NCBI GenBank assembly: GCA_964635635.1
Contig: CAZWPE010000001.1
Coordinates: forward strand, 639,020-703,019
Length of the DNA stretch: 64,000 nucleotides
DNA from: an uncultured Myxococcaceae bacterium
GTDB taxonomy: Bacteria > Myxococcota > UBA727 > JABDBI01
Direction of reading: 5' to 3'
Part shown: piece after piece, positions 4,575 to 52,785 of the stretch
Position numbering within the stretch: position 1 is the first letter of the stretch
Layout: the number at the start of each line of letters is the position of its first letter
Notes under the pieces: model-generated
The model's database searches: none
The model's input: the letters and a program-made list of their open reading frames with translations, nothing else
Told to the model about the DNA's origin: nothing
Translations under genes and position numbers: made by a program

Positions 4575-5494
4575 ATTGAGTTAAGCAGCAACCTAAAAGG
4601 CTCATCCTTTGATGCCATATCCATACCTTGAGAAACAAGTCTACTCACTTGAGCTTTATCACGCTTCAAAAATTCCGCAACTTCAGTAACACTTCTTGCA
4701 CTTACCATAACTGCAGCGGTTGAAAGCAGTCTTCTCGCCATCACCAAGTCTTGTCTTCTGGATAAGCTTGACAGCATCCCAGTGTTTACATTGAGCAACA
4801 AGGCTACACGTTTTGCGAGTGCAACCAATGACAAACGTTTTCGGCGTGGTTCTTTCTTTTGAGCAATTACCAGCATAGGCTCTACAGGTTCTTCGATATC
4901 AAGAGCTGCAGATTCTACAAAACGTGCAAAAGCTTTGCGAGAAACAGTCGACAGCTCTGAGAATACTTCAAAAACTTGTTCTGACTGCAGATTACCATTC
5001 CAAGGGGTATCCAGTCCCAAATAAGCCCTGTGCGAACTCCAAGGATAGTGTTCAGCTCTATTCACGACTCCTTTTCGAACGGGCCACAGATGAATATTTC
5101 TCAAAGCTTCTAAAATTTGTTCTTCTGTCAAAACATAAGACTCAAATCTGGCCTGAAATAGAGGCCCGTGACGTTGGTATTTATGATTCAGCCTGAGCGT
5201 ATGACTTCCATGAATACGCTGCATCATTCGGGCAAGTGACAACTGCGTAGGCTTTACCAGCAAACGAAGTTCTTCTGGATGGAGACAAAAACCATAAACC
5301 TGTATAACATCTTGTCGTGAGAGATCAGCCAACAAACTTAAATAACCTTCAAAATCTTGAGATTCATAAAACAGCTTATTCCCGCTTCCAGGCTTGGCAG
5401 AAATGAGATGAGGCTGGCCCATTTGAGTCACGCGAGCTTGTCTAGGCACAGACAAAACCCCCGGGTTGATGAAATAAAGGACATGAGCCCCCAA
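4571..5494 (-). CDS. Y1 (HUH) transposase-like (COG1943 / IS200-like, REP-associated tyrosine transposase (RAYT)-like) protein fused to a C-terminal DnaA domain-IV-like HTH. Probable true start at the internal Met (coordinate 5422).
   Basis: 307 aa. HYPWSSHRAY motif typical of COG1943 transposase-like proteins. C-terminal RRQDLVMARRLLSTAAVMVSARSVTEVAEFLKRDKAQVSRLV resembles the DnaA C-terminal DNA-binding domain. 4-nt overlap with the alr start. Confidence 0.5.
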   Translation of the reverse strand: MGAHVLYFINPGVLSVPRQARVTQMGQPHLISAKPGSGNKLFYESQDFEGYLSLLADLSRQDVIQVYGFCLHPEELRLLVKPTQLSLARMMQRIHGSHTLRLNHKYQRHGPLFQARFESYVLTEEQILEALRNIHLWPVRKGVVNRAEHYPWSSHRAYLGLDTPWNGNLQSEQVFEVFSELSTVSRKAFARFVESAALDIEEPVEPMLVIAQKKEPRRKRLSLVALAKRVALLLNVNTGMLSSLSRRQDLVMARRLLSTAAVMVSARSVTEVAEFLKRDKAQVSRLVSQGMDMASKDEPFRLLLNSI

Positions 5495-6283
5495 CTTGCA
5501 CAGCGCATTGAAGCTTTGTCGCGCAGCAAACTTAATTCATTCCATGTTGATCCTTTTGGATTGGATCCTGACAGCGTTAAGCCTTACGCACCGCTGGCAC
5601 ACTGGCTGTATACAAAATATTTTCGATGCAAGGTTTATGGAAAAGCCAATATACCGACAGGGCGTGCATTGGTTATTGCAAATCATTCGGGTCAGCTGCC
5701 TTTTGATGGACTCATGATAGCCATGGCTTTCATGCTAGAAGCAAAGGAACCTAGGCTTCTCAGAGGCATGGCCGAACGCTGGAGCGCTGAACTGCCTTTT
5801 ATTAGCTCATTATTTGCCAGAACCGGAACCGTGGTAGGCGACCCAAATGTGTGCCGAGATCTTCTGGAAAACGATGAAGCCATTTTGGCCTTTCCAGAAG
5901 GTGTCCGAGGCATCTCTAAGCTTTTTAAGAATCGCTATCGTCTAGAGGCCTTTGGGACTGGGTTCATGAAATTAGCGCTTCAAACCCGTTCCCCCATCAT
6001 ACCAGTTGCTGTGATTGGCGCAGAGGAACAAGCACCCTCAATCGCGAACTTCTCGAAACTTGGCAATCTACTGGGGGCCCCTGGTTTGCCGGTGATTTTC
6101 CCCCAAATCCTACCCATTCCATTACCTGTAAGATACCGGATTTACATTGGAAAGCCCTTGAAGTTTAATCCCGAAGACCATAAAAATGACCATCTAATCA
6201 CTGCCTATACGGACCAAGTCCAATGTAAAATTCAAGGCATGATTAATCACGGGCTTAAAGTTCGTAAGCATATCTTCTGGTAA
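5483..6283 (+). CDS. Lysophospholipid / 1-acyl-sn-glycerol-3-phosphate acyltransferase family protein (PlsC-like)
   Basis: HX4D acyltransferase motif ANHSGQLPFDG and PEGVRG motif. The ORF-track start (5357) overlaps the divergent gene; the Met at 5483 is the likely start. Confidence 0.75.
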   Translation: MSPQLAQRIEALSRSKLNSFHVDPFGLDPDSVKPYAPLAHWLYTKYFRCKVYGKANIPTGRALVIANHSGQLPFDGLMIAMAFMLEAKEPRLLRGMAERWSAELPFISSLFARTGTVVGDPNVCRDLLENDEAILAFPEGVRGISKLFKNRYRLEAFGTGFMKLALQTRSPIIPVAVIGAEEQAPSIANFSKLGNLLGAPGLPVIFPQILPIPLPVRYRIYIGKPLKFNPEDHKNDHLITAYTDQVQCKIQGMINHGLKVRKHIFW

Positions 6284-6591: not shown

Positions 6592-7983
6592 ATGTTTTTG
6601 AGGCTTTTTCTTTTCCTACTCGCCATAACATCGTCATTGCGAGGAGGCGTAGCCGACGCGGCAATCCACTGCAATGTTTTGATTTTAGGTGCCGGGCCCG
6701 GGGGCGTCCATACTGCTTACCAGCTTTCAAAATTACCTAATCAAAATATTTGTGTCGTTGAAAAAGAAGACCATCTGGGTGGAAGACTTTTTGACGTCGC
6801 ACTGGATCCAACCCACCCTCAATGGGTCTATGGCATGGGTGGCCTTCGGGTAATGGAGTCTCAAAAAAATGTCTTGAATCTGGCCAAAGAAATCGGTGTT
6901 GAACTTGAATATGCGCCTTACAAAGACACACTAATTAATACGCGTGGTATTTTTGGGGCAGATTCTGGAAGTATTGCCAAGCAAGCTTACCCGCTTGTTC
7001 AAATCAGCGAAGATGATTTGTACAAAAAATTACTGACCAGCCCTGAGCGTGCCAATGCCAAAAAATATCCCAGCATACGCTCCTACATGCAAAGCGTAAT
7101 TGGCGCTGAAGCACAAACTTTTTTACATGATGTCTCTCGTTTTCGAGCAGAGTTTGAGGCTCCTATCGATGTACGTTCTTATTTGGATTATATGGACGAA
7201 GAAATGGAAACCTGTTGCAATGCCTACTACCCAACGGGTGGCATGTCCGCATTTGTTTATAAAATGGCAGATCACGCGCGTTCTCGGGGTGTTCGTTTCT
7301 TTAGTTCAGAACCTGCCATAAGCATCCACAAAGCTTTTGGACTCTATCAGGTCAAAACGCCACATTATGTTTTCGAGGGTCAAAAATTGGTGATTGCAAT
7401 TAACGCCCAAGGCTTCAAATACGTCGGTGGAGATATCGCTCGGCGAATTCAATCACAGAGACAGTTTCAAGATATACTCGGCATCAAAGTCGTGACTGTC
7501 GCACAACAATTTCCAAACGCCTGGTGGCAGAATACCAATATCAGACGTGCTTGGACCAATGAGCATTGCCTCAATGCGCTCGAAATTCCCCTGAACACCT
7601 ATGCCGTACAGCAGCGTGTCATGCGCAGTGTATATGATGATGATATGCGCTGTGTCTCATTTTGGGAAAATACTTATCGCCATTTTGGACTAAAAGGCGT
7701 TGAAACTGAAATCATGAAGGGCTTGAAGCACCTCTTTTCTGGGGCTCATATCCCGTGGCCATCAAACACAGTGATTCAATTTTGGCCAGCTGCTTGGTAC
7801 TACTTGCGGGCCGGTACTCCTTTTAGCAATCGTGAGATTGCAGAGTGGGCTGTGGAGCCGCTACCAGGTGAAGATGTTTCACTGGTTGGAGATTCTTACT
7901 ATATTCAGCGTTCCGGCTGGAGCGATGCGGCTTATAAATCTTCGATGAATACCTTAAAGAGGCGATTTGGGATGGAAAATTAG
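6592..7983 (+). CDS. Secreted FAD-dependent amine oxidase / NAD(P)-binding oxidoreductase family protein
   Basis: 463 aa. N-terminal signal peptide, then Rossmann dinucleotide motif VLILGAGPGGVHTAYQLSK. Confidence 0.6.
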   Translation: MFLRLFLFLLAITSSLRGGVADAAIHCNVLILGAGPGGVHTAYQLSKLPNQNICVVEKEDHLGGRLFDVALDPTHPQWVYGMGGLRVMESQKNVLNLAKEIGVELEYAPYKDTLINTRGIFGADSGSIAKQAYPLVQISEDDLYKKLLTSPERANAKKYPSIRSYMQSVIGAEAQTFLHDVSRFRAEFEAPIDVRSYLDYMDEEMETCCNAYYPTGGMSAFVYKMADHARSRGVRFFSSEPAISIHKAFGLYQVKTPHYVFEGQKLVIAINAQGFKYVGGDIARRIQSQRQFQDILGIKVVTVAQQFPNAWWQNTNIRRAWTNEHCLNALEIPLNTYAVQQRVMRSVYDDDMRCVSFWENTYRHFGLKGVETEIMKGLKHLFSGAHIPWPSNTVIQFWPAAWYYLRAGTPFSNREIAEWAVEPLPGEDVSLVGDSYYIQRSGWSDAAYKSSMNTLKRRFGMEN

Positions 7984-9909
7984 GAAATTAAGAGTATTCT
8001 CAGCCCTGCTCAAGGTGTCTCGACGTTTTTTAGCCTGCCCATCAGATAACGTTTCCGGCAAAAATTTGTTCAACTCAAGAAGTGCTAAGTTCGCTTCAGA
8101 GTTCCCCTGATACTCTTTTAAACCCTTTAAAACAGCAGCATGTCTGCGACCATATTCACCCAACGAGCCTAAGTCAGTTTGAGGTCCAGCATAAAGTTCT
8201 CCTATGCTCGACCAATTGTCTAGAGTTAAATCTCTTTGTTCTGGATCAGCTTGTTTGAACTCAACCAGCTCCTCTCTCATTTGCTCAATCCGTTCATCAC
8301 AAGCAGTTAAAAAATTGATTCCAAGGTGTTCATTATCTTGAGATGTAAAAATCTCGGAGTTTTTCATAGATGGACTTTCTGCTTTTCTCCACATTTGCTT
8401 AATTAAATTCTGCGCCTCTTCCAGACTCAATTCTCTATCCACTATCAATGGAACCGAAGCCACACGAACCCTGGGTCCATCCATCAATACCAATGTACGT
8501 CTAAGTTTCAATTTAGACTTCTTCTCTGACGTTGGAGCTTCTTCAACTATCCATCCTGCATGCCGATTAAACATCCCTGGTTCGTCCAGAATCATCCAAA
8601 ATGGTTTCGAATCTAAAATACCCAGCTGTTTACGCAAATAAGCATTAGCCGATTGAAAATCAGGATCCTCAATCTTCTTTCTGGAAAATGCAGCCTTGTT
8701 TTTATTCCACCTGTTCATCGTCCCTGAACTCATAATCTCAGGCATAAATGGGAGATCCGGGAAACCATCTGTATGGAATTGAGTATTAATAGAACTTCGC
8801 TGTTGAAATGCAGCTCCTATTTGCGACAATTCTGCATCCTCTGCCTCTTGAGTCAACATTAGAATTTCTGCACCAGCAGCCATAATTTCTTTCGCACCGG
8901 GTTTGCCTTTAGTTACTGTTCTTATCCACTCAATAGCCTGAGGATTATCTGCTAAAAATTTTCCAAATTTTTGTTTAGTTGTTTCTGACCAACTGAATGT
9001 AGGCCCTAGAAATGAAACTATATTTTTAAGCTCCTCATTAAGAAACCACACTTTCAGAGCCTCAGCGTGCTTCGTATCAGCACTTCTAAGCCCAAACCAA
9101 GTTGACTTTCTAAGATGGACATCAGGACGATCTCTTTCGATAATTTCAATTGCTTCCTGGAGCGTCTTGCCCTGATATTTCATTAAGTACGCCGCTAAAA
9201 CAGTCGGGCTCCGACCAACACCGCTTTTGCAATGCAAATAAACAGGGCGGGTATCTTTAGGATTAGTCAGGGCCTGATGCAAAGCCTCAACACCCCTGTT
9301 TATTTCATCAGGCTTCATGCCAACATTGTCTTGAGACTCAACAATCGTAGCTTCTGCACGCATTGCTGGATTCATGTTTTCGGCTTCCCAGTGCTCTAGA
9401 ATTGCAACACATTTGAATGCAGGCCTTCTATCCTGCTGTACGGTGCCTATAGATGGAAGTTCTTCCCAACCACCTGGGATATCAGCTCCTTTCCCCCACT
9501 GCTTTTCTCCCTTCTGATCTGGGATCATTCCCAAATAAAGCTTCCTGCTGTTTTCATCATTTGAGTATTTAATCTGATTAAAAGCTGAGCCTGAAACACC
9601 TGCCGTGCCTTTTGTGTTTGCCTTACCTGCTTTGGATAGCATAAAGGTTCTACGGAACCATAATGCAGTTTTGTAGTAGGCTTGCTTATACCAACTTGTC
9701 TCGGTAACTTCTGAATGCCGATCAGACTGAGTAAAGACATCCGACGTATCGCTCATCAGATAAGCAGAATCTCCCCGCTTTAAAGAACTATAATTTTCAG
9801 TTCTATCCATACTTGTCGGTTCGGTTCTTGGCGTAATTGGCAACTTAACATCGCTCATAATATCCCGAAGTCTATCATCCAATTGTCCTAGGAAGCATGC
9901 ATGAGCCAA
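7954..9909 (-). CDS. Large protein with a dual-specificity / tyrosine phosphatase domain (CX5R active site)
   Basis: 651 aa. VYLHCKSGVGRSPTVLAAYLM is a canonical HCxxGxxRS/T PTP/DSP P-loop. The rest has no recognisable family. 30-nt convergent overlap with the amine-oxidase gene. Confidence 0.6.
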   Translation of the reverse strand: MAHACFLGQLDDRLRDIMSDVKLPITPRTEPTSMDRTENYSSLKRGDSAYLMSDTSDVFTQSDRHSEVTETSWYKQAYYKTALWFRRTFMLSKAGKANTKGTAGVSGSAFNQIKYSNDENSRKLYLGMIPDQKGEKQWGKGADIPGGWEELPSIGTVQQDRRPAFKCVAILEHWEAENMNPAMRAEATIVESQDNVGMKPDEINRGVEALHQALTNPKDTRPVYLHCKSGVGRSPTVLAAYLMKYQGKTLQEAIEIIERDRPDVHLRKSTWFGLRSADTKHAEALKVWFLNEELKNIVSFLGPTFSWSETTKQKFGKFLADNPQAIEWIRTVTKGKPGAKEIMAAGAEILMLTQEAEDAELSQIGAAFQQRSSINTQFHTDGFPDLPFMPEIMSSGTMNRWNKNKAAFSRKKIEDPDFQSANAYLRKQLGILDSKPFWMILDEPGMFNRHAGWIVEEAPTSEKKSKLKLRRTLVLMDGPRVRVASVPLIVDRELSLEEAQNLIKQMWRKAESPSMKNSEIFTSQDNEHLGINFLTACDERIEQMREELVEFKQADPEQRDLTLDNWSSIGELYAGPQTDLGSLGEYGRRHAAVLKGLKEYQGNSEANLALLELNKFLPETLSDGQAKKRRDTLSRAENTLNFLIFHPKSPL

Positions 9910-9941: not shown

Positions 9942-10487
9942 ATGAGAAGCTTATTCTTCGCGTTCTGGGCTTGCACCCTTCTGGCCCAAAAAGATCCTTT
10001 AAAATCGGTTAAAGCCTTAGACCTGAAACGCTATATGGGCCTATGGCATGAAGTAGCTAGGCTCCCCAACTCATTTGAGCGCAACTGCGAAAAAGCAACT
10101 GCAGAGTATTTCCTCAATGATGATGGAACTGTCCGAGTTTTGAATACCTGCGTCAAAGAAAATGGATACACCAAAAACATTAAAGGCAGGGCCTATATCC
10201 CAGACCCAGACTACCCTGCTCAGTTAAAAGTTAACTTTGTACCTAAGTGGCTCAGTTGGACAGGTTTGGGTTGGGGTGACTATTGGGTAATCGATCTAGA
10301 TTCCGATTACCAATGGGCTGTGGTGAGCGAGCCCTCCCGCGAATATTTGTGGATTTTAAGCCGATCCCCCCAAATGCCGCCCGAAGTATTTGGCGGTATT
10401 GTGAATAGACTGAAAGCGAAGCAATTCGATCTAACGCACCTCTTGATTTCGCCAGACTCTAAAGCTCTCAGCCGCTTGCTCAAGTAA
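9942..10487 (+). CDS. blc: Bacterial lipocalin (outer-membrane lipoprotein Blc)
   Basis: 181 aa. LDLKRYMGLWHEVARLPNSFE, DYWVIDLDSDYQWAVVSEPSREYLWILSR match the Blc signature regions. Confidence 0.85.
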   Translation: MRSLFFAFWACTLLAQKDPLKSVKALDLKRYMGLWHEVARLPNSFERNCEKATAEYFLNDDGTVRVLNTCVKENGYTKNIKGRAYIPDPDYPAQLKVNFVPKWLSWTGLGWGDYWVIDLDSDYQWAVVSEPSREYLWILSRSPQMPPEVFGGIVNRLKAKQFDLTHLLISPDSKALSRLLK

Positions 10488-11189: not shown

Positions 11190-11444
11190 ATGAGAAATTC
11201 TGGCATATTTGAAACCAAGACCCATTTTTCACAGCTCATTGAAGAAGTGATGGCCGGAGAATCTATATCCATTACCCGTCATGGCCAAGAAGTTGCTCGA
11301 TTAGTTCCTCCCCCTGAACATTCTTCTCAAAATTTTCGAGAAACCATTCAAAAAATTAAAGCGCTCAGAGAGGAACTGGCACTCAAGAACCCTGAACCTG
11401 ATCAGATGTCCATTCGCGAAATGATCGAATGGGGTCGCCAGTGA
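11190..11444 (+). CDS. Type II antitoxin, Phd/YefM family
   Basis: 84 aa. N-terminal ...ETKTHFSQLIEEVMAGESISITRHGQEVARLVP is the Phd/YefM fold signature. Overlaps the downstream PIN toxin. Confidence 0.8.
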   Translation: MRNSGIFETKTHFSQLIEEVMAGESISITRHGQEVARLVPPPEHSSQNFRETIQKIKALREELALKNPEPDQMSIREMIEWGRQ

Positions 11445-11854
11445 AAACACGCATTGTCTTCGACTGCTCTATGGCTGCCGCATGGCTTCTTCCTCAGCAA
11501 TCTACGCTAAAATCGGATGAATTGCTGGAAGCAGTTGGTGAGTACCAGTTGGTTGTTCCACATATTTGGGAAGCCGAAATCAGCAATGTCCTGCTTGTTC
11601 AAATTCGACGTGGAAAACTAACGCTTGCACAGGCCAACGGGTATATGGGTTACCTGAAAGAGCTGGAGCCCAGAGTCCATCCTTTATCTATCGAACAAAT
11701 GTTTGGCGAGGTTTTCCCACTGGCTCACCAATTTGGAATGAGCAGCTATGATGCAATCTATCTGAGTACCGCCCTTTCCTTAGGATTACCTCTAGCAACA
11801 TTAGATCAAAAACTCCAGTCTGCAGCCAAAAGCTGTGGAATCAAGCTCGCTTGA
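11429..11854 (+). CDS. vapC: Type II toxin, PIN-domain ribonuclease (VapC-like)
   Basis: 141 aa. IVFDCSMAAAWLL (first acidic residue) and SYDAIYLSTAL...LATLD motifs. Start overlaps the antitoxin stop. Confidence 0.8.
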   Translation: MGSPVKTRIVFDCSMAAAWLLPQQSTLKSDELLEAVGEYQLVVPHIWEAEISNVLLVQIRRGKLTLAQANGYMGYLKELEPRVHPLSIEQMFGEVFPLAHQFGMSSYDAIYLSTALSLGLPLATLDQKLQSAAKSCGIKLA

Positions 11855-16554: not shown

Positions 16555-17617
16555 TCTTTCGGTTTTTCTAACTGCCATTGGAGCGGGCGTTTTAGGCTCG
16601 CTTTGTGCACTTTTTTTAAAAGCCATTCAGCATCTCAGCTTTGGGTGGCACTATGCTGGTTTTTGGCTACAAGTTTCTCACGACCCAGCTATCCAGCGCT
16701 TCTGCGTCGTTTTAATATGTGGTTTAGTTTCAGGAGTTGGTTGGTGGTGGTTTTCTCAGTATAAACTGATCGATAATATACTTCAACTTATCACTGCTGG
16801 AATGGGATCTCCTTTGGGCCGTGAAGCAGCCCCGAGAGAAATTAGCGCTATTTTTTCAGGTTGGATTTCTAAAAAGCTTCAAGTTCCCGAATCTGAAATG
16901 AATTCGCTGCGTGCCTTAGCAGCAGGCGCAGCGTTGGGAACTATTTATAATGTACCCTTCAGCGGCGCACTATTTGCCTTTGAAAGCCTCAAAGCCGAGC
17001 GTACACTTCGAAACATCTTCACTGCCCTATTTATCAGTGGGTTCTCAATCTTTATTTCATGGAAATTCCTAGGCTCCAAGCCTCAATATGCACCCGTCGA
17101 ATTTGCTCCTGCAACTTCTCTGTATGTTGGTGCTCTGATTTTTGCGCCACTTTTTTGGTGGAGTGGAAATCGCTTTGGCGAGTTCATGTCCAGAATTAAA
17201 AGTCGCGCATTCAAAAACCAGAACCTGCTACTTGCATGCATCCTGAACTTTGCATTGGTTGGCCTTCTCAGCATGAAATTTCCAGCACTGCTTGGGAATG
17301 GCAAAAATGCTGCAGGTCTTGAGTTCGCGGATCTCCTTTCCTGGCACTCAACTGCTATTCTTTTATTACTTCGAATCCTGATCACTGTCACAACCCTCTA
17401 TGCAGGCGCCCATGGTGGGCTTCTCACGCCCTCTCTGGCCGCTGGAGCCCTGCTGGGCGGCACCGTAGGAGGGTTATGGCTGCAACTATGGCCCGGGACT
17501 AATCTGGCGAGCTTTGGGCTGGTAGGCGGCGCTGTGTTTCTAGGTGCTGCACAAAGAATCCCGCTGACAGCTTGCATGCTTATTCTAGAACTCACTGGGG
17601 CATTGCAGTACTTCTAG
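16532..17617 (+). CDS. Short ClC / voltage-gated chloride channel family protein
   Basis: 361 aa, multi-TM. GSPLGREAAPREISAIFSG (GREGP-like) and VPFSGALFAFE (GxFxP-like) selectivity-filter motifs. The N-terminal GSGIP motif is not found. Confidence 0.55.
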   Translation: MNNLWRVSLSVFLTAIGAGVLGSLCALFLKAIQHLSFGWHYAGFWLQVSHDPAIQRFCVVLICGLVSGVGWWWFSQYKLIDNILQLITAGMGSPLGREAAPREISAIFSGWISKKLQVPESEMNSLRALAAGAALGTIYNVPFSGALFAFESLKAERTLRNIFTALFISGFSIFISWKFLGSKPQYAPVEFAPATSLYVGALIFAPLFWWSGNRFGEFMSRIKSRAFKNQNLLLACILNFALVGLLSMKFPALLGNGKNAAGLEFADLLSWHSTAILLLLRILITVTTLYAGAHGGLLTPSLAAGALLGGTVGGLWLQLWPGTNLASFGLVGGAVFLGAAQRIPLTACMLILELTGALQYF

Positions 17618-20154
17618 TCTTTATCTTTACTCATCGCTCTAAAATGCTCGAGTGTTTTAAGAATCTTGGGCTTCAGCGCCTCCCAGTCGTGCTTCATGAG
17701 GATTTTAATCGCATCGTAGAACTCATTTACAGCAAAAACCTCAAAACGGCCCTGTTTGCATGCTTCTACGACTTCTTCCGACAGATTCAGATCCAGTCTA
17801 TTGCTTGCAGGGATTACAACTCCGTATTTGCCCTGTGGATTTCTGGCTTGGCAAATCTTGTAAAATCCTTCGATTTTTTGATTCACACCCCCAACAGCCT
17901 GAATCGTTCCTCGTTGGTCCATGGAACCTGTGATCGCAAAATTTTGTTCGATCGGAACACCTGCCAAAACTGAAAACAGCGTGCAGGCTTCTGCTAATGT
18001 TGCCGAGTCACCATCAATCTCGCCATAAGTCTGTTCCATCGCCAATATCACGTTAAAGTTCATCGGAATCTCAAGACCAAAGCAGTTGGCTAAAAATCCT
18101 CGAATAATTAAACGACCTTTGGTGTGGATTGGCCCGCCCTGCTCTGTTTCACGCTCAACATCGATAAACTCACCCTCACCCGCAGCAACACGACAAGTCA
18201 CACGAACAGGAACACCAAATTCATAGCTTCCAAGCTCAACGACCGTCATAGCATTGGCTTGTCCAAGAACTTGTCCGGAAGTTTCAATAGAGACTCTATC
18301 CTCGAGAATATCCTCAATCATCTGCGTTTGCAAAAAGCCTTCACGTTCCGCATGAGCATCCAAAGCATGTTGTACGTGAATGCGTTCAATTAAACGCGCC
18401 TTTTCTGTTCCCGCCCAGTAATTAGCTTCACGAACAATATCAGCCATATCACCAATTCGCGAAGTCAGTTTATTTTGATGCCCAGCCGTTCGAACCGCAT
18501 GTTCAATCACTCGACCTGCTCCTTCGGGAGTCAAACTCCGAAGTTTTTCATCTGCACATAAATGGCTTAAGAACTTAGCATAGCGCTCAACATGCTCATC
18601 TGAACGCACCATCTCATTATCAAAATCTGCCTTTACCTTAAAAAGTTTCGAGAATTCAAGGTCTGTCTTAGTCAGAACGTAATAGAGCTCCGGAATACCA
18701 ATCAAAATCACTTTAATCTCGAGTGGAACAGGTTCTGGGCGAAGTGAAGCGACAGAAACCATTCGTCCAGGCTCACCTGGGTCATCAAGCTCTACCGCTC
18801 TGTTTTTCAAAGCTCGTTTAAGGCCTTCCCAAGCGGCTGGATCGCGCAAAATATCTTGTGCTTCTAAAAGTAAATATCCACCATTGGCTTGATACAATGC
18901 ACCTGCACGTATCCGGGTGTGATCCGTCATGGTCTCGCCACCTCTCAGGCGCTGCTCAATGCGCCCGATTAAGTTGGAAGAGGTGGGGTGTGTCTCTTGA
19001 ACCACCGGAGCCCCTGCAGACTTGGCGTGCGTAACAAAAACATTAACACGGTAACGAAGGAGTGCAGGTTCATCATCATCATAGTCCTCTTCTTCCTCTG
19101 TATTTCGAGGACGAGGTCTTGGTGATTCTGAGTTTTCAGAAGCATTTGCAGTTTCATCTGGAATCAAGCGTCTAAGACGATTCAGCACATCTTCCTGGGA
19201 AGCCTCCAAATGAGCTATCACTCTTGGGTAAAGCTTCCAGTTTGTTTTTGCAGCATCAAAAAGCGGCGCTAAAATAACATTCGCAGTTTTCTTCTCTAAT
19301 GAATCAATGGTTTCTTCAGACTCTCGTTCAATCGCTCTAATACGACGAATACAGTCTTCTAAATGCATTTCTAGACGTTCAGCGTTTTGCTCAAGATGCT
19401 GCTTTTTCTTTTCGGTTAAGCGCTCAAATTCTTCTTCTGAGATTGCTTGTCCTTTAGAATTCGCAGGGGTAATCGTGAGCGCTCCAGCAGCTCTTTGAAG
19501 CACAAAACCTTTGCCTGAAGCTTCCTTTTCTATAATCTGAAGAAGCTCTTCTGTCTTTGTTTGACAATCATCACTAAGCGCTTGCCGTTCAGCAATATAG
19601 CGCTCTGACTCAAAAGTCTTTTCCAGATCTGACATAAAGCGCTCAACCAGAGTGTCATAAGTCTTTTTTAGCTTAGGACCCATCCCGGCAGGAATGCGGA
19701 CAGCAAGCGGACGGTCTCTGTTTTCAAAGTTATACAGAAGAACAACATCATCTGGCGTAGGTTCCTTGATCGCTCTATCAGATAAGAGTTGATTGACAGT
19801 TGAAGTTCTTCCCGTTCCAGATTCGCCTACAACAAATATGTTAAATCCGCGCTGACGGACTCCGAGTCCCATCTCTAATGCAGACAACGCACGTTGCTGA
19901 ACCATCGCTCCGAATCGGTCAGTTTTTGACTTCTTTCGCTTACGGACAGTAAGGCCTGCACTCACAACAGACAAATCTTTAAGTTGAAAGCGCAAAGAAT
20001 CAGCGGCGATGGGGTGGATCATGTCCCAGAGCTTAACCGAAAACCTTCCGACAGTGAAGCATGAACCTGGAATAAATACATTCCACTTCAAAGTTTGCCC
20101 TTTATGACTGGTTAAGTACCTTGCAGCAGTGCTACACTGCGGCTGGTGGCTCAA
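17614..20154 (-). CDS. Lon-like ATP-dependent protease (COG1067/LonB-type; AAA+ module plus C-terminal S16 protease domain)
   Basis: 846 aa. Walker A GESGTGRTS. C-terminal DGDSATLAEACTLFSVLAG...ITGSMDQRGTIQAVGGVNQKIEG parallels the Lon DGPSAG...GG.KEK catalytic Ser/Lys region. Internal acidic EEEEDYDDDE stretch. Confidence 0.65.
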   Translation of the reverse strand: MSHQPQCSTAARYLTSHKGQTLKWNVFIPGSCFTVGRFSVKLWDMIHPIAADSLRFQLKDLSVVSAGLTVRKRKKSKTDRFGAMVQQRALSALEMGLGVRQRGFNIFVVGESGTGRTSTVNQLLSDRAIKEPTPDDVVLLYNFENRDRPLAVRIPAGMGPKLKKTYDTLVERFMSDLEKTFESERYIAERQALSDDCQTKTEELLQIIEKEASGKGFVLQRAAGALTITPANSKGQAISEEEFERLTEKKKQHLEQNAERLEMHLEDCIRRIRAIERESEETIDSLEKKTANVILAPLFDAAKTNWKLYPRVIAHLEASQEDVLNRLRRLIPDETANASENSESPRPRPRNTEEEEDYDDDEPALLRYRVNVFVTHAKSAGAPVVQETHPTSSNLIGRIEQRLRGGETMTDHTRIRAGALYQANGGYLLLEAQDILRDPAAWEGLKRALKNRAVELDDPGEPGRMVSVASLRPEPVPLEIKVILIGIPELYYVLTKTDLEFSKLFKVKADFDNEMVRSDEHVERYAKFLSHLCADEKLRSLTPEGAGRVIEHAVRTAGHQNKLTSRIGDMADIVREANYWAGTEKARLIERIHVQHALDAHAEREGFLQTQMIEDILEDRVSIETSGQVLGQANAMTVVELGSYEFGVPVRVTCRVAAGEGEFIDVERETEQGGPIHTKGRLIIRGFLANCFGLEIPMNFNVILAMEQTYGEIDGDSATLAEACTLFSVLAGVPIEQNFAITGSMDQRGTIQAVGGVNQKIEGFYKICQARNPQGKYGVVIPASNRLDLNLSEEVVEACKQGRFEVFAVNEFYDAIKILMKHDWEALKPKILKTLEHFRAMSKDKD

Positions 20155-22804: not shown

Positions 22805-23257
22805 TCAACTCATCCACATTAATCCTGCAACAACAATTCCTGCCAGAATATCGTCAAACATGATTCCAAATGGCCCCTTGATTTTGCGGTCTGCCCAGGA
22901 AATTGGCCAGGGTTTTAGGATATCAAACACACGAAACAAAATAAATGCGACAGCAATTGATGTGATGGTTGGCTCACAAAAAAGCGTTGCAAAACCCATG
23001 CCGGCTGCTTCATCAATCACAACTTCTTTGGGGTCATCGGATTCAAAGTGAGAACGCGAAATTGCCCAAATCCCGAGGGCAAATACAGCTAATGACACAA
23101 ATAGTCTGAGCAAAAAAGAAGCGCCACTTAAAACTAGGGGCGCCCATAAAATCGACGAAGCCAGAGACCCCCAAGTACCAGGCGCAAATGAAATGCGCCC
23201 GATGGAGCCCAGCGTACTAAGTTTCTGCGTTACGTCTGAGGAACGCAGGAATGTCAT
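22805..23257 (-). CDS. pgpA: Phosphatidylglycerophosphatase A
   Basis: [49 protein letters not shown] match PgpA motifs. Start set at internal Met (ORF track 23284). Overlaps the ftsZ 3' end. Confidence 0.8.
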
Positions 23258-24671
23258 ATTCGTCTTCTTTTGACTTTGAACCATGCATCGTTAAAGAAGC
23301 ATCTTCTTCGACAGGTGCCAACACAGGAATCTTCATTTCTGTCACAGGCCGAATTCCGGATGGCTGATCCCAACTCTGACGGATATAAGCTGGAATATCC
23401 TTCGATGGCTCCGGATGATGGCTTGGGAACATGCTCGGAACATGTGATGCCATTGGCGCAGCTGCAACAGGTGCAGGCTGTACAAATGGAGCTGGTTCCG
23501 GATGAATTGATGGAGCCATTGAGAATACTGGTTCTGGTGTCGGTGCAGGGTGAATCGAAGGGAATACCGGAGCGACTTCGAACGGAGCTGGAGTTTCAAC
23601 AGGAGCAGCAACTGCCGGAGGTTGATTAAACAATGGCCCTGGTGCCTGCATCGTTTCAATAGCAGCAGGAATTGATTTTTGAATCAGCTCTGGCTCTTTG
23701 AAAGTACTGCCCTTTGCACCCTCAAAACCCGTTGCAATCACGGTAATGGTCACTTCATCTTCGAGTTTTTCATCAACCACATAACCAAAGATGATATTCG
23801 CATCTTCGTGTGCAGCCTTAGTAATGAGCTCAATGGCTGAGTTGACTTCATGCAAGGTCAAAGACTTACCACCAGTCACATTGACCAGTATGCCCATGGC
23901 ACCATCCACAGAAACATCTTCAAGAAGTGGACTTGAAATCGCTTTCTGAGCTGCTTCCACTGCACGATTGTCACCCTTGCCCGAACCAATCCCCATGAGC
24001 GCCATACCTTGATCACTCATCACAGAAATAGCATCTGCAAAGTCTACATTCACAATACCTTGTTGGGTAATGATATCGCTGATTCCCTTCACAGCATTGA
24101 GCAATACTTGGTCAGCCATTTTGAATGCGTCAAGCATTGAGGTGTTAACATCGGCAAGTTGCAACAGACGATTGTTAGGCACAACAATCAAGGTATCAAC
24201 AGCAGCTTTTAAGGCTTCAACACCTGCTTCAGCAGATTTTCGGCGACGGTTACCTTCAAACAAGAAAGGCTTGGTGACAACACCTACGGTCAAAGCACCC
24301 AAACGCTGAGCAACATCTGCAATAATCGGAGCAGCGCCCGTTCCGGTACCACCACCCATACCAGCAGCAATAAACACCATGTCTGCACCGAGCAAAAGCT
24401 CTTCAATACGGTCCATGCTTTCTTTCGCAGCCGTGGCGCCTACTTCAGGCTTAGCGCCAGCTCCAAGACCCTTGGTACACCCCTGGCCAAGTTGAAGTTT
24501 CACGGGAGAGGCACTCATATCAAGCGCCTGACAGTCCGTGTTGGCTACAATAAACTCAACACCATGGATACCATGCTGAATCATATTGTTGACAGCATTT
24601 CCACCGCCACCACCTACGCCAACAACTTTAATTTTAGGACCTCTTTGTTGCATTTCATCAAATTCAATCAT
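23217..24671 (-). CDS. ftsZ: Cell division GTPase FtsZ, with Pro-rich C-terminal linker
   Basis: 484 aa. GGGTGTG tubulin signature, NTD (ANTDCQAL), C-terminal DIPAFLRR peptide. Confidence 0.95.
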
Positions 24672-40721: not shown

Positions 40722-42059
40722 CTACGCAAAAGGATTCTTGATTGGAGTCAGCATTTTCTTGATAAACTGAATATGGGGCTTAGTTTCCAAACGACCATTT
40801 TCAATCGCTCGATCCAGTTCCTGAGGTGAAGGAACCACATTGATGGGAGACAACACTTTCTGATAGGCAATCACCAAATCTGAATGTTTATAGCCTTCTT
40901 TGCTATTTTCCGCTGCAATATGCATCAGTGGCAGGAATAGCCAGTGGCGTTTCCAATTCGGTGAAAATGCATCCAGCGATAAAACAAATGGATCCTGTAG
41001 CTGAGCCCTGGCTGCCTTGGCAGGCAAATTGTCTGCTAAACCACCATCCAAAAGGCGACTGACACTATTTTGGTGTAAAATTTCTCTGATCAACGGAACC
41101 ATATGAGGATCGTTTCTGAGAACATCATAATGAAACAAACCTGGGACTGATGCTGAAAAACCAACCGCATCAATCACATCAAATTCTCGGCTTAACTCAT
41201 CAGCCCCCAAGTAAATGGCTTTAAGCGGCTTTTGGGCAATCTTAATCAAACTTTGAATAATGCTTTTTTCCTGCCTCTTAATCTCTGTCGGCAATATTTG
41301 GTGTGCATCAAGCCAATCTGCTTCACCCAATTTTTCCACATCAGATTCTGGAATACCAGCCACCGTTACGAGCAGAGGTATCGCAAGTTCCCTGAGATGC
41401 ATCGCTCGCCCATCTTTTTGAAACTCTGCTCCAAAAACATCATGTAGATTTAATCTAAAACTTGCCGGCAAACCAAAACGACTCCCCTGGTCTGAACTCT
41501 GGGTGAGACGACTCCAAACCAAAGGAAGTGTCACACGCTTCAAATCCTCAACATCAAAATGTATGGTTTTGGCTCGATACGCCCCTAAAATAGCCCCCAT
41601 AGAGCTACCCGCAATGATATCTGGGACAATTCCAGCTTCCTCAAACTCAGCAAATGCTCCCGCATAAACAAAACCTGTGCCCCCACCCCCACCGAGCACC
41701 AGAGCAAATGGACGTTTCGAAATTGAATCTTCCAAGGCCTTCACATCTAAACGTGAGCCAAACAGTGAGCTTAACTCTTTGAGCTCAGCCTGTAGAAGGT
41801 TGGCAATAGAGGCAACGCTTTTTACCCCATCTGCCAGCATGAGTGTATGCAGACGCTCACGATAGACATCCGTAGAATGCCCAATATCTATGGGATTTTT
41901 ACCGGGTATTTGTGAAATCCGTGCCAGAGATAGAGCCCAGCGCATGATTGATTCATCTTCGCTGGAGAGCCGAACAGAGCTTTCGCACAAAGAACGTACG
42001 AGATCGCGTTCCATTTGAGCGAGTTCCTTGATAAAAGCTCTGGTATCTTGCTCCACCAA
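40722..42059 (-). CDS. Patatin-like phospholipase family protein
   Basis: 445 aa. Oxyanion GGGGGTG, nucleophile elbow AGSSMG, catalytic-Asp motif DGGLADNLP. Confidence 0.85.
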   Translation of the reverse strand: MVEQDTRAFIKELAQMERDLVRSLCESSVRLSSEDESIMRWALSLARISQIPGKNPIDIGHSTDVYRERLHTLMLADGVKSVASIANLLQAELKELSSLFGSRLDVKALEDSISKRPFALVLGGGGGTGFVYAGAFAEFEEAGIVPDIIAGSSMGAILGAYRAKTIHFDVEDLKRVTLPLVWSRLTQSSDQGSRFGLPASFRLNLHDVFGAEFQKDGRAMHLRELAIPLLVTVAGIPESDVEKLGEADWLDAHQILPTEIKRQEKSIIQSLIKIAQKPLKAIYLGADELSREFDVIDAVGFSASVPGLFHYDVLRNDPHMVPLIREILHQNSVSRLLDGGLADNLPAKAARAQLQDPFVLSLDAFSPNWKRHWLFLPLMHIAAENSKEGYKHSDLVIAYQKVLSPINVVPSPQELDRAIENGRLETKPHIQFIKKMLTPIKNPFA

Positions 42060-49140: not shown

Positions 49141-49230
49141 GGAGAGATGGCCGAGCGGTTTAAGGCACTGGACTTGAAATCCAGCGTAGGGGTAACTCTA
49201 CCGTGAGTTCGAATCTCACTCTCTCCGCCA
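49141..49230 (+). tRNA. tRNA-Ser (anticodon UGA), class II with long variable arm
   Basis: Acceptor stem ggagaga/tctctcc + G + CCA. Anticodon loop cTTGAaa. TPsiC stem gagTTCGAATCtc. Extra arm gcgtaggggtaactctacc. Confidence 0.9.
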
Positions 49231-49303: not shown

Positions 49304-51148
49304 CTAATCCATGTCTTGGTTTGGGGGGATAAGTGAATCTGACTCATTACAGTATGAATAACCCCATGAAAGGCCTTGTTTGAACATGTGCTCGATTGCA
49401 AAGGGTTGTGACATCAGGCCCTTAGACCGATCATTTGATTGAGGGATATTGAGGTGATGTTTGAACGCGATTTTAATACCGAGTTCGAGCTGTTCTTTGA
49501 TTTTGGCTTCTGCCACACCGATCATTCGCATCATCAATTTCAAAATTTTCGTTTTAGTTTCAAGAGGAGTTTTAGAATGACGGAAGATAAAATTGAGTGC
49601 TTTCGCCTTGAGAGATGCGTGATTGTCAAGCTCACTCAGTTTATCAACCGCTTGTTCGGGTTCAATTTCATATCCTTCATCGAGCAAGGTTTTCAAAGCC
49701 TCAAGCCATGCTTGATCATCAGGAAGCCGATGATAAGCACTTGCCACATGACCAAAAATAACAGCCGAAGCAAAATAGTTTTTGCTCATCAAGATCGGCC
49801 GCACGGACTGAGGGCTATTTTGTTTAGAGTGCCAAAGTAATGAATGACCCAATGCCCGGTAAGCCATGTTCTCACTTTGAGTCATGTCTCCAAACTCCCG
49901 CATGGCACGAAAATGGTTGTTTTTGGGTGAAGCAAAAAATACCCTGAGGCTGCTTAAAAATCTATGGAGCTGAGAACCCAAGGTGTAGACTGGGTCAATT
50001 AGCGCAATCTGCTTAAGATGGGTTAAATGGTCTAAGAGCATCTTTTCATCAACCAAATCTAAAGCAAAGTGGGGACTTGTCTTTTCAATTCTGGCAAATG
50101 GAAAGTGAATGTAAGCATGTTGCAGAAAATCGCGTTCACCACTGAGCGGGGTTGCGTGTTCTCTAATTTTTAGCCTGTGTTGCTCCTGACTCTCCATGAT
50201 GCTTTCAACAGTTTGAGCTCCTGGGGCACCCGGACTAAGTTCTGGTCGCTTGCTTTTTGAAAACAGGCTTGCAAATTGGTCAAGTTCCTTGGGGTATGTT
50301 TCTGAGCCCGTTGTTTCAAATTCTTTGACGTTCCGCGTGTTAAATACTTGGATGTCTATTGCACTCAAACTAGAGGGATCAACATAGGCCGGCAGCTGAA
50401 AATCTGATGGCACATAACTCGTTCGATAAGCTTCAAGTTGAAGTGCCCTCATGTTTTTAAACAATTCACTGAATGACAAAGAAGGTGGTTTCGCTTTCAA
50501 TAGAGCTGACTTGTAAATACTATGTATAGTTGCTGAATTTAAAGCCATTTTATCGTTTCCGGTCGATACAACTGTGATTTCAGCGCCACTCTTTTTTGAA
50601 ATTTCTTCTAAAGCGAGGCGATTTTTTTCACGAAGAAAATTAGCGCCATAACAGGAGTTTAAAAAGAACACGATACGATTCATGATCGATGCATACCGTT
50701 CAATCGTTTGAAAGATCTCACTTTCAAAAGTTTTACTCCCTGATAGTTTCCAGCCTTCTGCTTCTAAAACACCGTGAGCTGTAACCACCATCACGAGCAA
50801 AGCAGAGTCTTCTGACGAAAGAGAGGCTTTCACATGACTGAACGGCACATACGTACCAGGGATATAGTCAGTGAGGGCATTCTCAGAAACGAAGTCAAAT
50901 ACATCAAAAAAGTTTTCTGGTTCTTTTACGCCCTCAACGTCTCTCAGGTCTGCAATGGTTTGAAAGCGATCGCCATATATGTCCCGAAGTGTTTTTTTAA
51001 ACAAAAGGCCAACATTCAGACGTTCTCCAATATCTCCATCGGTAAAAGAGCTCGAATGCAGGAATACTTTTTCAGCAGAAAAAGCATTGACCGACAAAAA
51101 GAGCAGAGCAAAAAACGTTTTTAGTTTATTTTTCATATATTTTATCAA
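49304..51148 (-). CDS. Secreted protein with N-terminal caspase-like (His-Gly ... Cys dyad) peptidase-like domain
   Basis: 614 aa. Signal peptide. VMVVTAHGVLEAEG followed by FFLNSCYGANF resembles the caspase/CHAT-type His...Cys arrangement. Probable start at the internal ATG (MKNKLK). Confidence 0.4.
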   Translation of the reverse strand: MIKYMKNKLKTFFALLFLSVNAFSAEKVFLHSSSFTDGDIGERLNVGLLFKKTLRDIYGDRFQTIADLRDVEGVKEPENFFDVFDFVSENALTDYIPGTYVPFSHVKASLSSEDSALLVMVVTAHGVLEAEGWKLSGSKTFESEIFQTIERYASIMNRIVFFLNSCYGANFLREKNRLALEEISKKSGAEITVVSTGNDKMALNSATIHSIYKSALLKAKPPSLSFSELFKNMRALQLEAYRTSYVPSDFQLPAYVDPSSLSAIDIQVFNTRNVKEFETTGSETYPKELDQFASLFSKSKRPELSPGAPGAQTVESIMESQEQHRLKIREHATPLSGERDFLQHAYIHFPFARIEKTSPHFALDLVDEKMLLDHLTHLKQIALIDPVYTLGSQLHRFLSSLRVFFASPKNNHFRAMREFGDMTQSENMAYRALGHSLLWHSKQNSPQSVRPILMSKNYFASAVIFGHVASAYHRLPDDQAWLEALKTLLDEGYEIEPEQAVDKLSELDNHASLKAKALNFIFRHSKTPLETKTKILKLMMRMIGVAEAKIKEQLELGIKIAFKHHLNIPQSNDRSKGLMSQPFAIEHMFKQGLSWGYSYCNESDSLIPPNQDMD

Positions 51149-51324: not shown

Positions 51325-52785
51325 TTATCGAGTTCGTCGAGTGGAGTTAGGCTTTTTTTCTTCCGGGTAATCTTGGCATCCTCTAACAGCATTTAAATTA
51401 GCACCCTTGTGAGCACCCAGAGCCGTAATCAATCGACCCTCCACGCATCTCAAAACCTTGTTCACGTGGTCCTTTGGATTACCCTCATTTTCATCTTCAT
51501 CTTCATTTAAAAAGTCAGATAATCCAAGCGAGAACGGATCTATGCCTGTAACTAAGAGTGAATGACATGTAACTCCAGATTCTAACATCCAACTATGAAG
51601 GCGACTATCTTCGTTTTTATTGGCACACTCAAGATGCTCTACGTTGCGTATTATTAATACTCTATTTCCTTTGGGGCCAGAACTGACGAGCCCGATATAG
51701 TATCCTTTTAACCCGTGAGCTGTAAAAAGATCCTTAAAATAAGCAGAGAGTCCCGTTACTTCTTTCTCAGAAGGGCAATGATCAAATGTAATAATTGGAA
51801 TTTTACGAGGCAGTGGTGTTTTAGTGTAGACATAAATCTGTCCCGGTAAGATTACTCCTTTCTTCTCTGGATTTGGTTTATTTGTTTCTTCATCCCAAAG
51901 ATAAATGGCTCTAGGTTCAATGTCTCCTATTGTTTGCCCAGAAGAGGATGTTGGCGTTTGAAAAGCATAGCATTTTTCAGCCGGCCTAACTTGTTTAAGT
52001 GGTGTTTCTGAAGGATTAGTGGATTGTTGAAGATGGGTATGGTTAGCTTCAGTATGAGATGCTGCGTCAATAATTTCGCATGCTTTCACCGTGGCTTGAG
52101 ATGCTGCAGCTGCAGCTGTAGCTTGAGATCCTCCGGTAGAACTTATCGTTTTTTTTGAGAAGGTATATTCATCATCATCTTCGAAATTTAACTGACACGA
52201 AACTGTAGATTCAGATTCTTCAGGCTGAACACTTGTAGGCTTAGTCTTCTTAGGTGAAGATGAAGGTGAACCTGTTGTTTGTTTCTGACCAGGGACAGTT
52301 TGAGAAGCTTTCTTTTCAAAGTCTATCTGATTGGATTCAGAACTTTCTGCAATAAGCTTGGATGCTTCCTTAATTTCAGCAGGTGACTCTAACAAAGCAT
52401 TTTGATCAAACTCACCCAACTCATCTTGCTCTTGTTCAAGTTCTTCAATCTGTTCCTTGTTCTTAAGCTGCCCCTGTTGCTTAAGCTCTTCTATTTGCTT
52501 TTTAATTTTCTTTAATTTCTGTCCAACTGTTTTAGGTTCATCTTTAGATGTTTTTTTTTCAAGTGCCTCAGTTGGATCATTTTTTTCTAAAGCTTTTACA
52601 GCAAATAGAGATAGCCACGGTTGCTTTTTAAAAGTTTGAAATAAACTTTGGATAGGTGCTGCGATAGGATTCAAGATTTGAATTTCAGCAAAAACAGGCA
52701 ATGATGCTAACATTAAACAAAAAACAATTCTGAAAAACATGAAAACTCCGGAAAACAAACAATTGGCTATAAGCAGATCAAACAA
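51325..52785 (-). CDS. Secreted coiled-coil / low-complexity hypothetical protein
   Basis: 486 aa. Signal peptide (MFFRIVFCLMLASLPVFA), Lys/Glu-rich coiled-coil, Ser/Thr-rich linker, Cys/His-containing C-terminal domain with no clear family. Confidence 0.4.
   Translation of the reverse strand: MFDLLIANCLFSGVFMFFRIVFCLMLASLPVFAEIQILNPIAAPIQSLFQTFKKQPWLSLFAVKALEKNDPTEALEKKTSKDEPKTVGQKLKKIKKQIEELKQQGQLKNKEQIEELEQEQDELGEFDQNALLESPAEIKEASKLIAESSESNQIDFEKKASQTVPGQKQTTGSPSSSPKKTKPTSVQPEESESTVSCQLNFEDDDEYTFSKKTISSTGGSQATAAAAASQATVKACEIIDAASHTEANHTHLQQSTNPSETPLKQVRPAEKCYAFQTPTSSSGQTIGDIEPRAIYLWDEETNKPNPEKKGVILPGQIYVYTKTPLPRKIPIITFDHCPSEKEVTGLSAYFKDLFTAHGLKGYYIGLVSSGPKGNRVLIIRNVEHLECANKNEDSRLHSWMLESGVTCHSLLVTGIDPFSLGLSDFLNEDEDENEGNPKDHVNKVLRCVEGRLITALGAHKGANLNAVRGCQDYPEEKKPNSTRRTR

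Follow-up and report, generated by a model that had tools for sequence, protein, structure and literature searches.

Cysteine-based phosphatases that share the CX5R active-site loop include a number of bacterial effectors delivered to eukaryotic cells, such as Salmonella SopB and SptP, Yersinia YopH, Legionella SidF and SidP, Mycobacterium MptpB and Xanthomonas XopH. The same loop is found in the lipid phosphatase PTPMT1, where it is rich in basic residues (CKAGRSR), and on an orthologue of which Rhodopirellula baltica, a species without pgpA, pgpB and pgpC, has been found to depend (PMC3576122). A 64-kb stretch of DNA from an uncultured Myxococcaceae bacterium (contig CAZWPE010000001.1), termed 'the window' when its whole length of 64,000 nucleotides is meant, carries on its reverse strand at 7954..9909 an open reading frame (ORF) in which a reading made from the sequence alone had recognised the active-site loop of a protein tyrosine phosphatase (PTP) or dual-specificity phosphatase (DSP). 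The encoded protein is predicted to be a cysteine phosphatase of the dual-specificity class (atypical DSP), soluble and capable of catalysis. This kind of enzyme is known, one homologue having been labelled 'dual specificity protein phosphatase family protein' by NCBI; the architecture in which it occurs, and the family to which it belongs, are new and very rare.

The peptide that the sequence-only reading took for a CX5R loop is present in the translation, with HCKSGVGRS encoded at 9208..9234 (-), and the Pfam DSPc model (PF00782) matches the protein far above chance, scoring 52.7 bits against a gathering cut-off of 33.5 (E=5e-14). DSPc is matched in all five full-length members of the family, and other models of the same clan (PTP-SAK, Tc-R-P, PTP-NADK and Y_phosphatase) score below it. 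The single-sequence match spans the C-terminal half of the Pfam model only; the family profile, when compared with PTPMT1, aligns over residues 7-137 of 157 (E=7.6e-14), and a Foldseek search with an AlphaFold2 (AF2) model retrieved whole DSP domains (probability 1.00, target TM-score 0.6-0.7), the top match being PTPMT1 bound to phosphatidylinositol 5-phosphate (PI5P; 3rgq). Because both the family profile and the fold match extend over entire DSP domains, the catalytic domain, placed at 9109..9582 (-) by Pfam, Foldseek and the family profile, is predicted to be complete, with a 23-residue insertion following LYLGMIPD. The AF2 models, for which five sequences served as input, are of moderate quality, with a mean predicted local distance difference test score (pLDDT) of 56-57; the DSP core is modelled at 70-86.

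The residues expected to carry out catalysis, numbered throughout on a 634-residue form of the protein, do not vary within the family: H209, C210, G213, G215, R216, S217 and D177 are identical in 14 of the 14 sequences aligned. These include the nucleophile Cys210, the phosphate-binding Arg216 and Ser217 of the P-loop, and the putative general acid D177 of the DNVGM loop (9316..9330, -), which sits 33 residues before C210 and aligns with the general-acid Asp in the D-loop of PTPMT1. The Cys/Arg dyad, the loss of which had been named as a threat to the phosphatase assignment, is therefore retained on careful alignment, and the protein is very probably an active Cys-based DSP that would use Cys210, Arg216 and Asp177. 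The further description of the active site as 'eukaryotic-type' is loosely true, in that the best characterised relatives include eukaryotic PTPMT1 and DUSP10; however, they also include archaeal Tk-PTP, a HMMER profile search of 1.84 billion cluster representatives gave 4420 unlabelled matches of generic DSP type at E<=1e-3, and a bacterial orthologue of PTPMT1 is known (PMC3576122).

By homology, Cys210 would attack a phosphate held by the HCKSGVGRS loop with its Arg216, Asp177 would protonate the leaving group, and the resulting thiophosphate intermediate would then be hydrolysed, as in the standard PTP/DSP mechanism. Because PTPMT1, the closest characterised relative, removes phosphate from lipid head groups, namely those of phosphatidylglycerophosphate (PGP) and PI5P, the shallow DSP pocket may act on a phospholipid head group or on a phosphoprotein at the membrane surface. 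The conserved core of the family comprises this catalytic module and a basic helix upstream of it, followed by a C-terminal 'cargo' that varies between members, being either absent, or formed of a helical bundle and a beta-meander, or made up of kinase-like, USP deubiquitinase, Macro and NADAR segments. If the core is directed at a eukaryotic cell, the reading preferred below, the lineage-specific C-terminus would provide targeting, oligomerisation or regulation.

Few relatives of the protein exist among the sequences searched. Beyond the protein itself, only four homologues came out of a word-indexed search of 5.8 billion proteins, and 13 proteins were matched at E<=1e-30 in the HMMER search of 1.84 billion representatives, which speaks against the homologues being ubiquitous housekeeping proteins, an outcome that the sequence-only reading had recognised as damaging. 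The full-length architecture is found in four representatives (P0001, P0002/3, P0004 and P0005), seven others (224-276 residues) consist of the N-terminal helix and DSP domain alone, with P0167 as an eighth short member, and two giant proteins carry the helix/DSP module at their N-terminus. P0034, 153 residues in length, was considered as a standalone version of the C-terminal module and rejected as a truncated full-length gene, since its frame runs on to the edge of the contig without a break and the residues upstream can be aligned with the window protein. Contigs of species-representative genomes, scanned with the patterns YLHCKSGV and [EQK]DNVGM[KE]P, yielded two domain-level matches only, both from high-GC Gemmatimonadetes metagenome-assembled genomes (MAGs; loci L005 and L006); the same scan missed the window genome and the loci of 'Myxococcaceae bacterium' MAGs, which are either absent from that collection or masked in it. 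A metagenome scan with the C-terminal module returned no matches.

The named members of the family are all from MAGs labelled 'Myxococcaceae bacterium', and the DnaE protein encoded in the window is 79-87% identical to those of MAGs labelled Myxococcota, Deltaproteobacteria or Myxococcaceae. The related loci all have a GC content of 39-47%, which is low for Myxococcota. Judged from these relatives, the family is confined to an uncultured low-GC lineage labelled Myxococcota/Deltaproteobacteria.

Within this lineage the surroundings of the gene are partly conserved. In the window and in a MAG locus (L001) alike, a block of rpsD-exbB-uppS-cdsA is found at a distance of 2-4 kb from the phosphatase gene, with its orientation relative to that gene unchanged, and the order Fur (or Zip)-NagZ(GH3)-DSP...ThrRS recurs in L001, L004, L011 and L012. 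Near the phosphatase gene of the window there is no nagZ or thrS, and the rpsD-exbB-uppS-cdsA block is kept. When the window is compared with L001, the DSP domains are 40% identical and the C-termini 19%, whereas the syntenic proteins are conserved at 78% (RpsD), 66% (ExbB), 61% (UppS) and 55% (CdsA); orthologues found at the same locus span from 244 residues, without the C-terminus, to 526. The phosphatase gene thus evolves much faster than its neighbours, with a C-terminus that is variable between orthologues.

A different combination of domains is found in P0024, a protein of 1518 residues (L013:2353-6909, IMG sample 3300045996) in which the DSP module is followed, in order, by a LepB_N-like segment, a UCH/USP deubiquitinase (E=2e-47), a Macro domain and a NADAR domain. 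The DSP core of P0024 is the closest to that of the window protein, sharing 57% identity and an IP.G...GTV insertion, and its gene is flanked by a thiolase gene and a chorismate-binding gene; the contig is compact, of bacterial type, and matches in GC content (0.448). It may be described as a 'multi-eraser' mosaic, combining a phosphatase, a deubiquitinase and two domains of de-ADP-ribosylation type, and a case can be made that it is the more remarkable of the two proteins. Since a ubiquitin-directed domain needs a eukaryotic target, the fusion pulls the DSP module toward a eukaryote-directed function; the association with eukaryote-specific biochemistry would be an indirect one, made through this homologue and not through the window protein itself. 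The LepB_N-like segment was also considered as a lipid kinase that might support a link to phosphoinositides, and was set aside with a score of 21.3 against a Pfam cut-off of 25 and no sequence match in the PDB. At other loci, the genes neighbouring those of relatives encode a 1006-residue ankyrin protein, directly upstream in L003, a protein with a SET domain in L009, a TLC ATP/ADP translocase in L007, and proteins of Lcl_C and PI-PLC-X type in L001.

The reading preferred here, which is regarded as an even call, is that the conserved core represents an effector-type module with a eukaryotic cell, host or prey, as its target. Effector-type behaviour is suggested by the fast divergence of the gene, its variable C-terminus, the P0024 fusion, the neighbours of the relatives, and a disordered, Ser/Thr-rich N-terminus of non-Sec type; both export of the protein and a eukaryotic target would follow. 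Several observations weigh against it. The TLC and SET neighbours belong to more distant members of the family, with 36-45% identity in the DSP domain, and the window genome does not give the impression of being reduced, but of being metabolically complete. Pfam scans of the ORFs found no secretion-system or chaperone gene within the 64-kb window, hydropathy analysis found neither a Sec signal nor a transmembrane segment in the protein (maximum 19-residue value 1.21), and a search of literature and sample metadata, by accession and by theme, found nothing relevant on the lifestyle of the lineage. The substrate class comes from a nearest-homologue argument only, in which the Lys following the Cys favours a lipid head group and the P-loop has one basic residue (that Lys) where PTPMT1 has two. 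The GC content of the gene, at 0.422, is normal for the window (z=-1.1), and DSP genes of the family abut or overlap nagZ as if co-transcribed, the overlap being 19-29 nt in L004 and L011. The phosphatase is a positionally conserved gene of the lineage, with local gene turnover, and not an obvious island, and such a position also fits a housekeeping or regulatory role. That role would be filled by an endogenous, non-exported enzyme, either a peripheral-membrane lipid phosphatase converting PGP to phosphatidylglycerol in the manner of bacterial PTPMT1, or a signalling phosphatase that counteracts the eukaryote-like kinases, common in Myxococcota, by removing phosphate from Ser, Thr or Tyr, with the C-terminus regulatory or partner-binding; this is considered a credible rival, if one that falls short of being probable. 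Besides the conserved locus, the normal GC content, and the lack of signal peptide, transmembrane segment and secretion genes in the window, it is favoured by PTPMT1 being the best characterised relative, a bacterial orthologue of which has PGP phosphatase activity (PMC3576122), by lipid-related neighbours (a PlsC-type acyltransferase gene at 5357..6283, a lipocalin gene at 9942..10487, and cdsA), and by the presence of a kinase-like gene within the window. However, the genome already has a phosphatidylglycerophosphatase A, PgpA (22805..23284, -), the amphipathic character of the helix before the DSP domain is weak in the window protein, and a housekeeping enzyme would not be expected to retain so little identity when its neighbours retain 55-78%, to gain or lose a C-terminus of 200-380 residues between orthologues, to belong to a family of about 12 representatives, or to be fused to a ubiquitin-specific protease.

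Two further explanations are much less probable than either of these. That the phosphatase is the toxin domain of a polymorphic or other inter-bacterial competition system, or a component of anti-phage defence, is very unlikely: the Pfam models Tc-R-P (PF22785; 26.8 against a cut-off of 27) and PTP-SAK (27.7 against 27) score near their thresholds, and toxin-antitoxin modules lie nearby, in the form of vapBC (11190..11854) in the window and HigBA beside P0003, but the DSPc model outscores all others by a wide margin, the phosphatase occupies an N-terminal or central position and not that of a C-terminal toxin tip, and there is neither an RHS, PAAR, LXG or other trafficking domain nor a small immunity-like gene at a conserved position. 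Membership of a defence system was rejected, as no PADLOC model matches the phosphatase, and a polymorphic toxin likewise, Tc-R-P being sub-threshold and the architecture wrong. It is similarly hard to credit that the protein is an inert pseudo-phosphatase scaffold, or the product of a decaying gene, as might be argued from the 23-residue insertion in the DSP domain, the shortened pre-DSP helix, the unique tail of 100 residues, and the GRSP sequence, in which Pro follows Arg-Ser where the family has Ala; His209, Cys210, Arg216, Ser217 and Asp177 are nevertheless intact and invariant, the ORF is uninterrupted over 1.9 kb, and the insertion is partly common to P0024, which argues for a tolerated surface loop. 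Were the eukaryote-directed reading true, the lineage would constitute a source of enzymes for host manipulation that had gone unrecognised and that falls outside the classical intracellular phyla, and the protein a tractable entry point to it, with activity, substrate and localisation all addressable using recombinant protein alone. Were the housekeeping reading true, the protein would instead be the second example from bacteria of a phosphatase resembling PTPMT1, acting on lipids or in signalling, and its regulatory tail would be an unusual one.

The phosphatase had originally been grouped with other genes of the window into a repertoire of host- or prey-directed effector-like enzymes, a proposal of which only part stands. 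A patatin (40722..42059, E=3e-21) and a Fic domain (61451..62530, E=4e-18) are indeed encoded. The atypical kinase at 30238..32559 has a kinase-like C-terminal region, but scores 30.1 bits with the Pkinase model, below the Pfam cut-off of 31.7; the caspase-like gene was not found, there being no caspase-type domain in any window ORF of at least 150 residues, and the repertoire is accompanied by no secretion-system gene in the window. Because patatin and Fic domains are common in free-living bacteria too, the window by itself is not enough to demonstrate an arsenal of effectors.

The kinase-like ORF (30238-32559, -; 773 residues) has the lowest GC content in the window (0.382, z=-2.45), suggesting a foreign origin, and its PADLOC matches are to generic kinase models only (mad6 and PD-T4-6). 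Two orphan ORFs of low GC content and with no Pfam match, at 49304..51148 (614 residues, z=-1.3) and 51325..52785 (486 residues, z=-2.3), stand directly beside a tRNA-Ser gene (49141..49230) and may represent an island acquired at that tRNA gene. Horizontal acquisition of the phosphatase gene, when considered on composition, was rejected, its GC content being no outlier, unlike those of the kinase-like ORF and of the ORF at 51325..52785. The window is otherwise an ordinary piece of chromosome, containing genes of the mevalonate pathway (GHMP kinase and HMG-CoA reductase, 471-2470, -), alr, a dcw cluster from murG to ftsZ, pgpA adjoining ftsZ, bamA/tamB, dnaE, and the rpsD-exbB-uppS-cdsA block. 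It also encodes a VapB/VapC-like (PIN) toxin-antitoxin pair, recognised by eye from the ORF translations, between aroE and rpsD (11190..11854, +), and an 846-residue AAA+ protease of LonB/LonC type (Pfam; 17614-20154, -).

The maximal ORF (7954..9909, -) is present as described by the sequence-only reading, open without interruption and 651 residues long when counted from a TTG codon, but its probable product is shorter. The publicly called identical protein, P0001, begins at an ATG at 9858, corresponding to M18 of the ORF, and is 634 residues in length. A GGGA sequence is found 6-9 nt 5' of this ATG, whereas the TTG start is without a ribosome-binding site and would leave just 32 bp before the divergent lipocalin gene. 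Because GGGA precedes the ATG, the TTG start has no ribosome-binding site, and the public call uses the ATG, a coding sequence of 7954..9858 (-), specifying 634 residues and a stop codon, is likely to be the correct one. Both neighbours are arranged as had been stated: a flavin amine oxidase gene (6592..7983, +) is convergent with the phosphatase gene, the 3' ends of the two overlapping by 30 bp, and a Lipocalin_2 (Blc-type) gene (9942..10487, +), identified by Pfam, diverges from its start. The N-terminus of the oxidase resembles a signal peptide (MFLRLFLFLLAITSSLRGGVADA). A scan for promoters and terminators around the phosphatase gene performed no better than on shuffled sequence.

Outside the catalytic domain, the first 52 residues (9703..9858, -) form a Ser/Thr-rich segment, by composition and hydropathy, that is predicted to be disordered (pLDDT <50). 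Near its beginning is a P-x-x-P motif (residues 7-10; 9829-9840, -), which reads PITP in the window protein and PTxP or PMTP in relatives, P7 and P10 being invariant in five of five full-length members, and which could act as a docking or export-related motif. The DSP domain is preceded by a basic, aromatic segment beginning WYKQAYYKTALWFRRTFML... (residues 53-77; 9628..9702, -), modelled by AF2 as a helix, whose conserved 'QKxYF..L.GRK' block forms part of the family signature. In most relatives this helix is cationic and amphipathic, with a hydrophobic moment of 0.5-0.69 and a net charge of +2 to +5, whereas that of the window protein is shortened and weakly amphipathic, with a hydrophobic moment of 0.36.

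The C-terminal 377 residues, modelled in a separate AF2 run, resolve into two moderately confident sub-domains. A family-specific five-helix bundle (residues 258-360; 8779..9087, -; pLDDT 63-85) extends the DSP domain, opening with a conserved DTKH..AL motif, and has no significant fold match by Foldseek. A three-stranded beta-meander with associated helices follows (residues 422-535; 8254..8595, -; pLDDT 56-84) and, with its HAGW, L-x-R-T-L and S-V-x-L-N-L-P-E-L-T motifs, is the best-conserved part of the C-terminus; this region is confined to full-length members and the truncated gene P0034. The protein ends in a helical tail (residues 536-634; 7957..8253, -; pLDDT <50) that is not found in homologues, alignment columns 601-693 being occupied by the window protein alone. 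The earlier statement that the protein has no other recognisable domain is thus borne out to the level of the fold, within the limits of a model derived from five sequences.

One lead for the identity of this C-terminal region came from prokaryotic COMMD-like proteins, which are concentrated in Myxococcota and detectable essentially by structure only, and for which no fusion to a phosphatase has been described (2026 paper, PMC13392464). In the window model, a five-helix bundle, three antiparallel strands and a helix mirror the HN and COMM domains of such proteins, which also bear the same phylum label, and a Foldseek search of the PDB with the C-terminal model included COMMD or COMMD-like chains as six of the top 20 matches, at a level that is not significant (best E=0.016, probability 0.21, TM-score <=0.36). 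The Pfam COMM model has no match in the window protein or the full-length members, a PDB profile search with the C-terminal region gave no significant COMM match, and two hhalign comparisons with authentic COMM sequences from the PDB gave probabilities of 1% and 0.2%; in the hhalign register the conserved Trp and the second strand fell where expected for COMM, at a non-significant probability. As a candidate the COMMD-like C-terminus failed every test of significance, whether by fold, profile or hhalign, and it is doubtful that 8254..9087 encodes a highly diverged COMMD-like HN and COMM oligomerisation unit fused to a PTPMT1-like lipid phosphatase. If it did, a phosphatase would be fused to a ring of COMMD type in the very phylum from which the COMMD proteins of eukaryotes have been proposed to derive; the prokaryotic COMMD-like proteins would then have a first biochemical partner, and would be tied to the phosphorylation of membrane lipids.

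Comparison with known systems places the protein at varying distances from each. The CX5R effectors resemble it in their Cys chemistry, in being multi-domain bacterial proteins, in having a non-Sec N-terminus, in the inferred action on host lipid or protein, and in the modular architecture of family members. However, none of them was recovered as a sequence or fold match, so that the resemblance is by analogy only, and for the window protein neither a cognate secretion system nor a chaperone or a translocation signal was found. Closer are the atypical DSPs, MAP kinase phosphatases (MKPs) and archaeal PTPs, represented by DUSP23/VHZ, DUSP26, DUSP3/VHR, DUSP10/MKP5 and Tk-PTP/SsoPTP, which match the same Pfam DSPc model and have the same fold, with P-loop, D-loop and C-terminal helices that align with those of the window protein. 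These enzymes are, by contrast, protein phosphatases of 150-200 residues, or carry rhodanese/CH2 targeting domains, whereas the flanks of the window protein are unrelated to these and family-specific.

The best match by sequence, profile and fold alike is PTPMT1, with which the window protein has in common the DSP fold, a P-loop of the form HCK-x-G-x-x-RS with Lys after the Cys, a general-acid Asp at the same aligned position, and a basic helix before the catalytic domain, amphiphilic in PTPMT1 (PMC3576122). The two nonetheless share only around 20-25% identity, and the P-loop reads CKSGVGR in place of CKAGRSR, Val replacing the second basic residue. PTPMT1 is a single-domain protein of about 200 residues, unlike the 634-residue window protein with its 377 additional C-terminal residues, which has neither a transmembrane segment nor a strong amphipathic anchor. 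Because the P-loop lacks the second basic residue and a PgpA is encoded in the genome, the protein is not considered to be a PTPMT1 orthologue. Taken alone, it adds a further member to the very large DSP superfamily; the novelty lies in the package, in which a lineage-restricted DSP core with its own N-terminal helix is recombined with different C-terminal modules, one such combination being the deubiquitinase/Macro/NADAR 'eraser' array.

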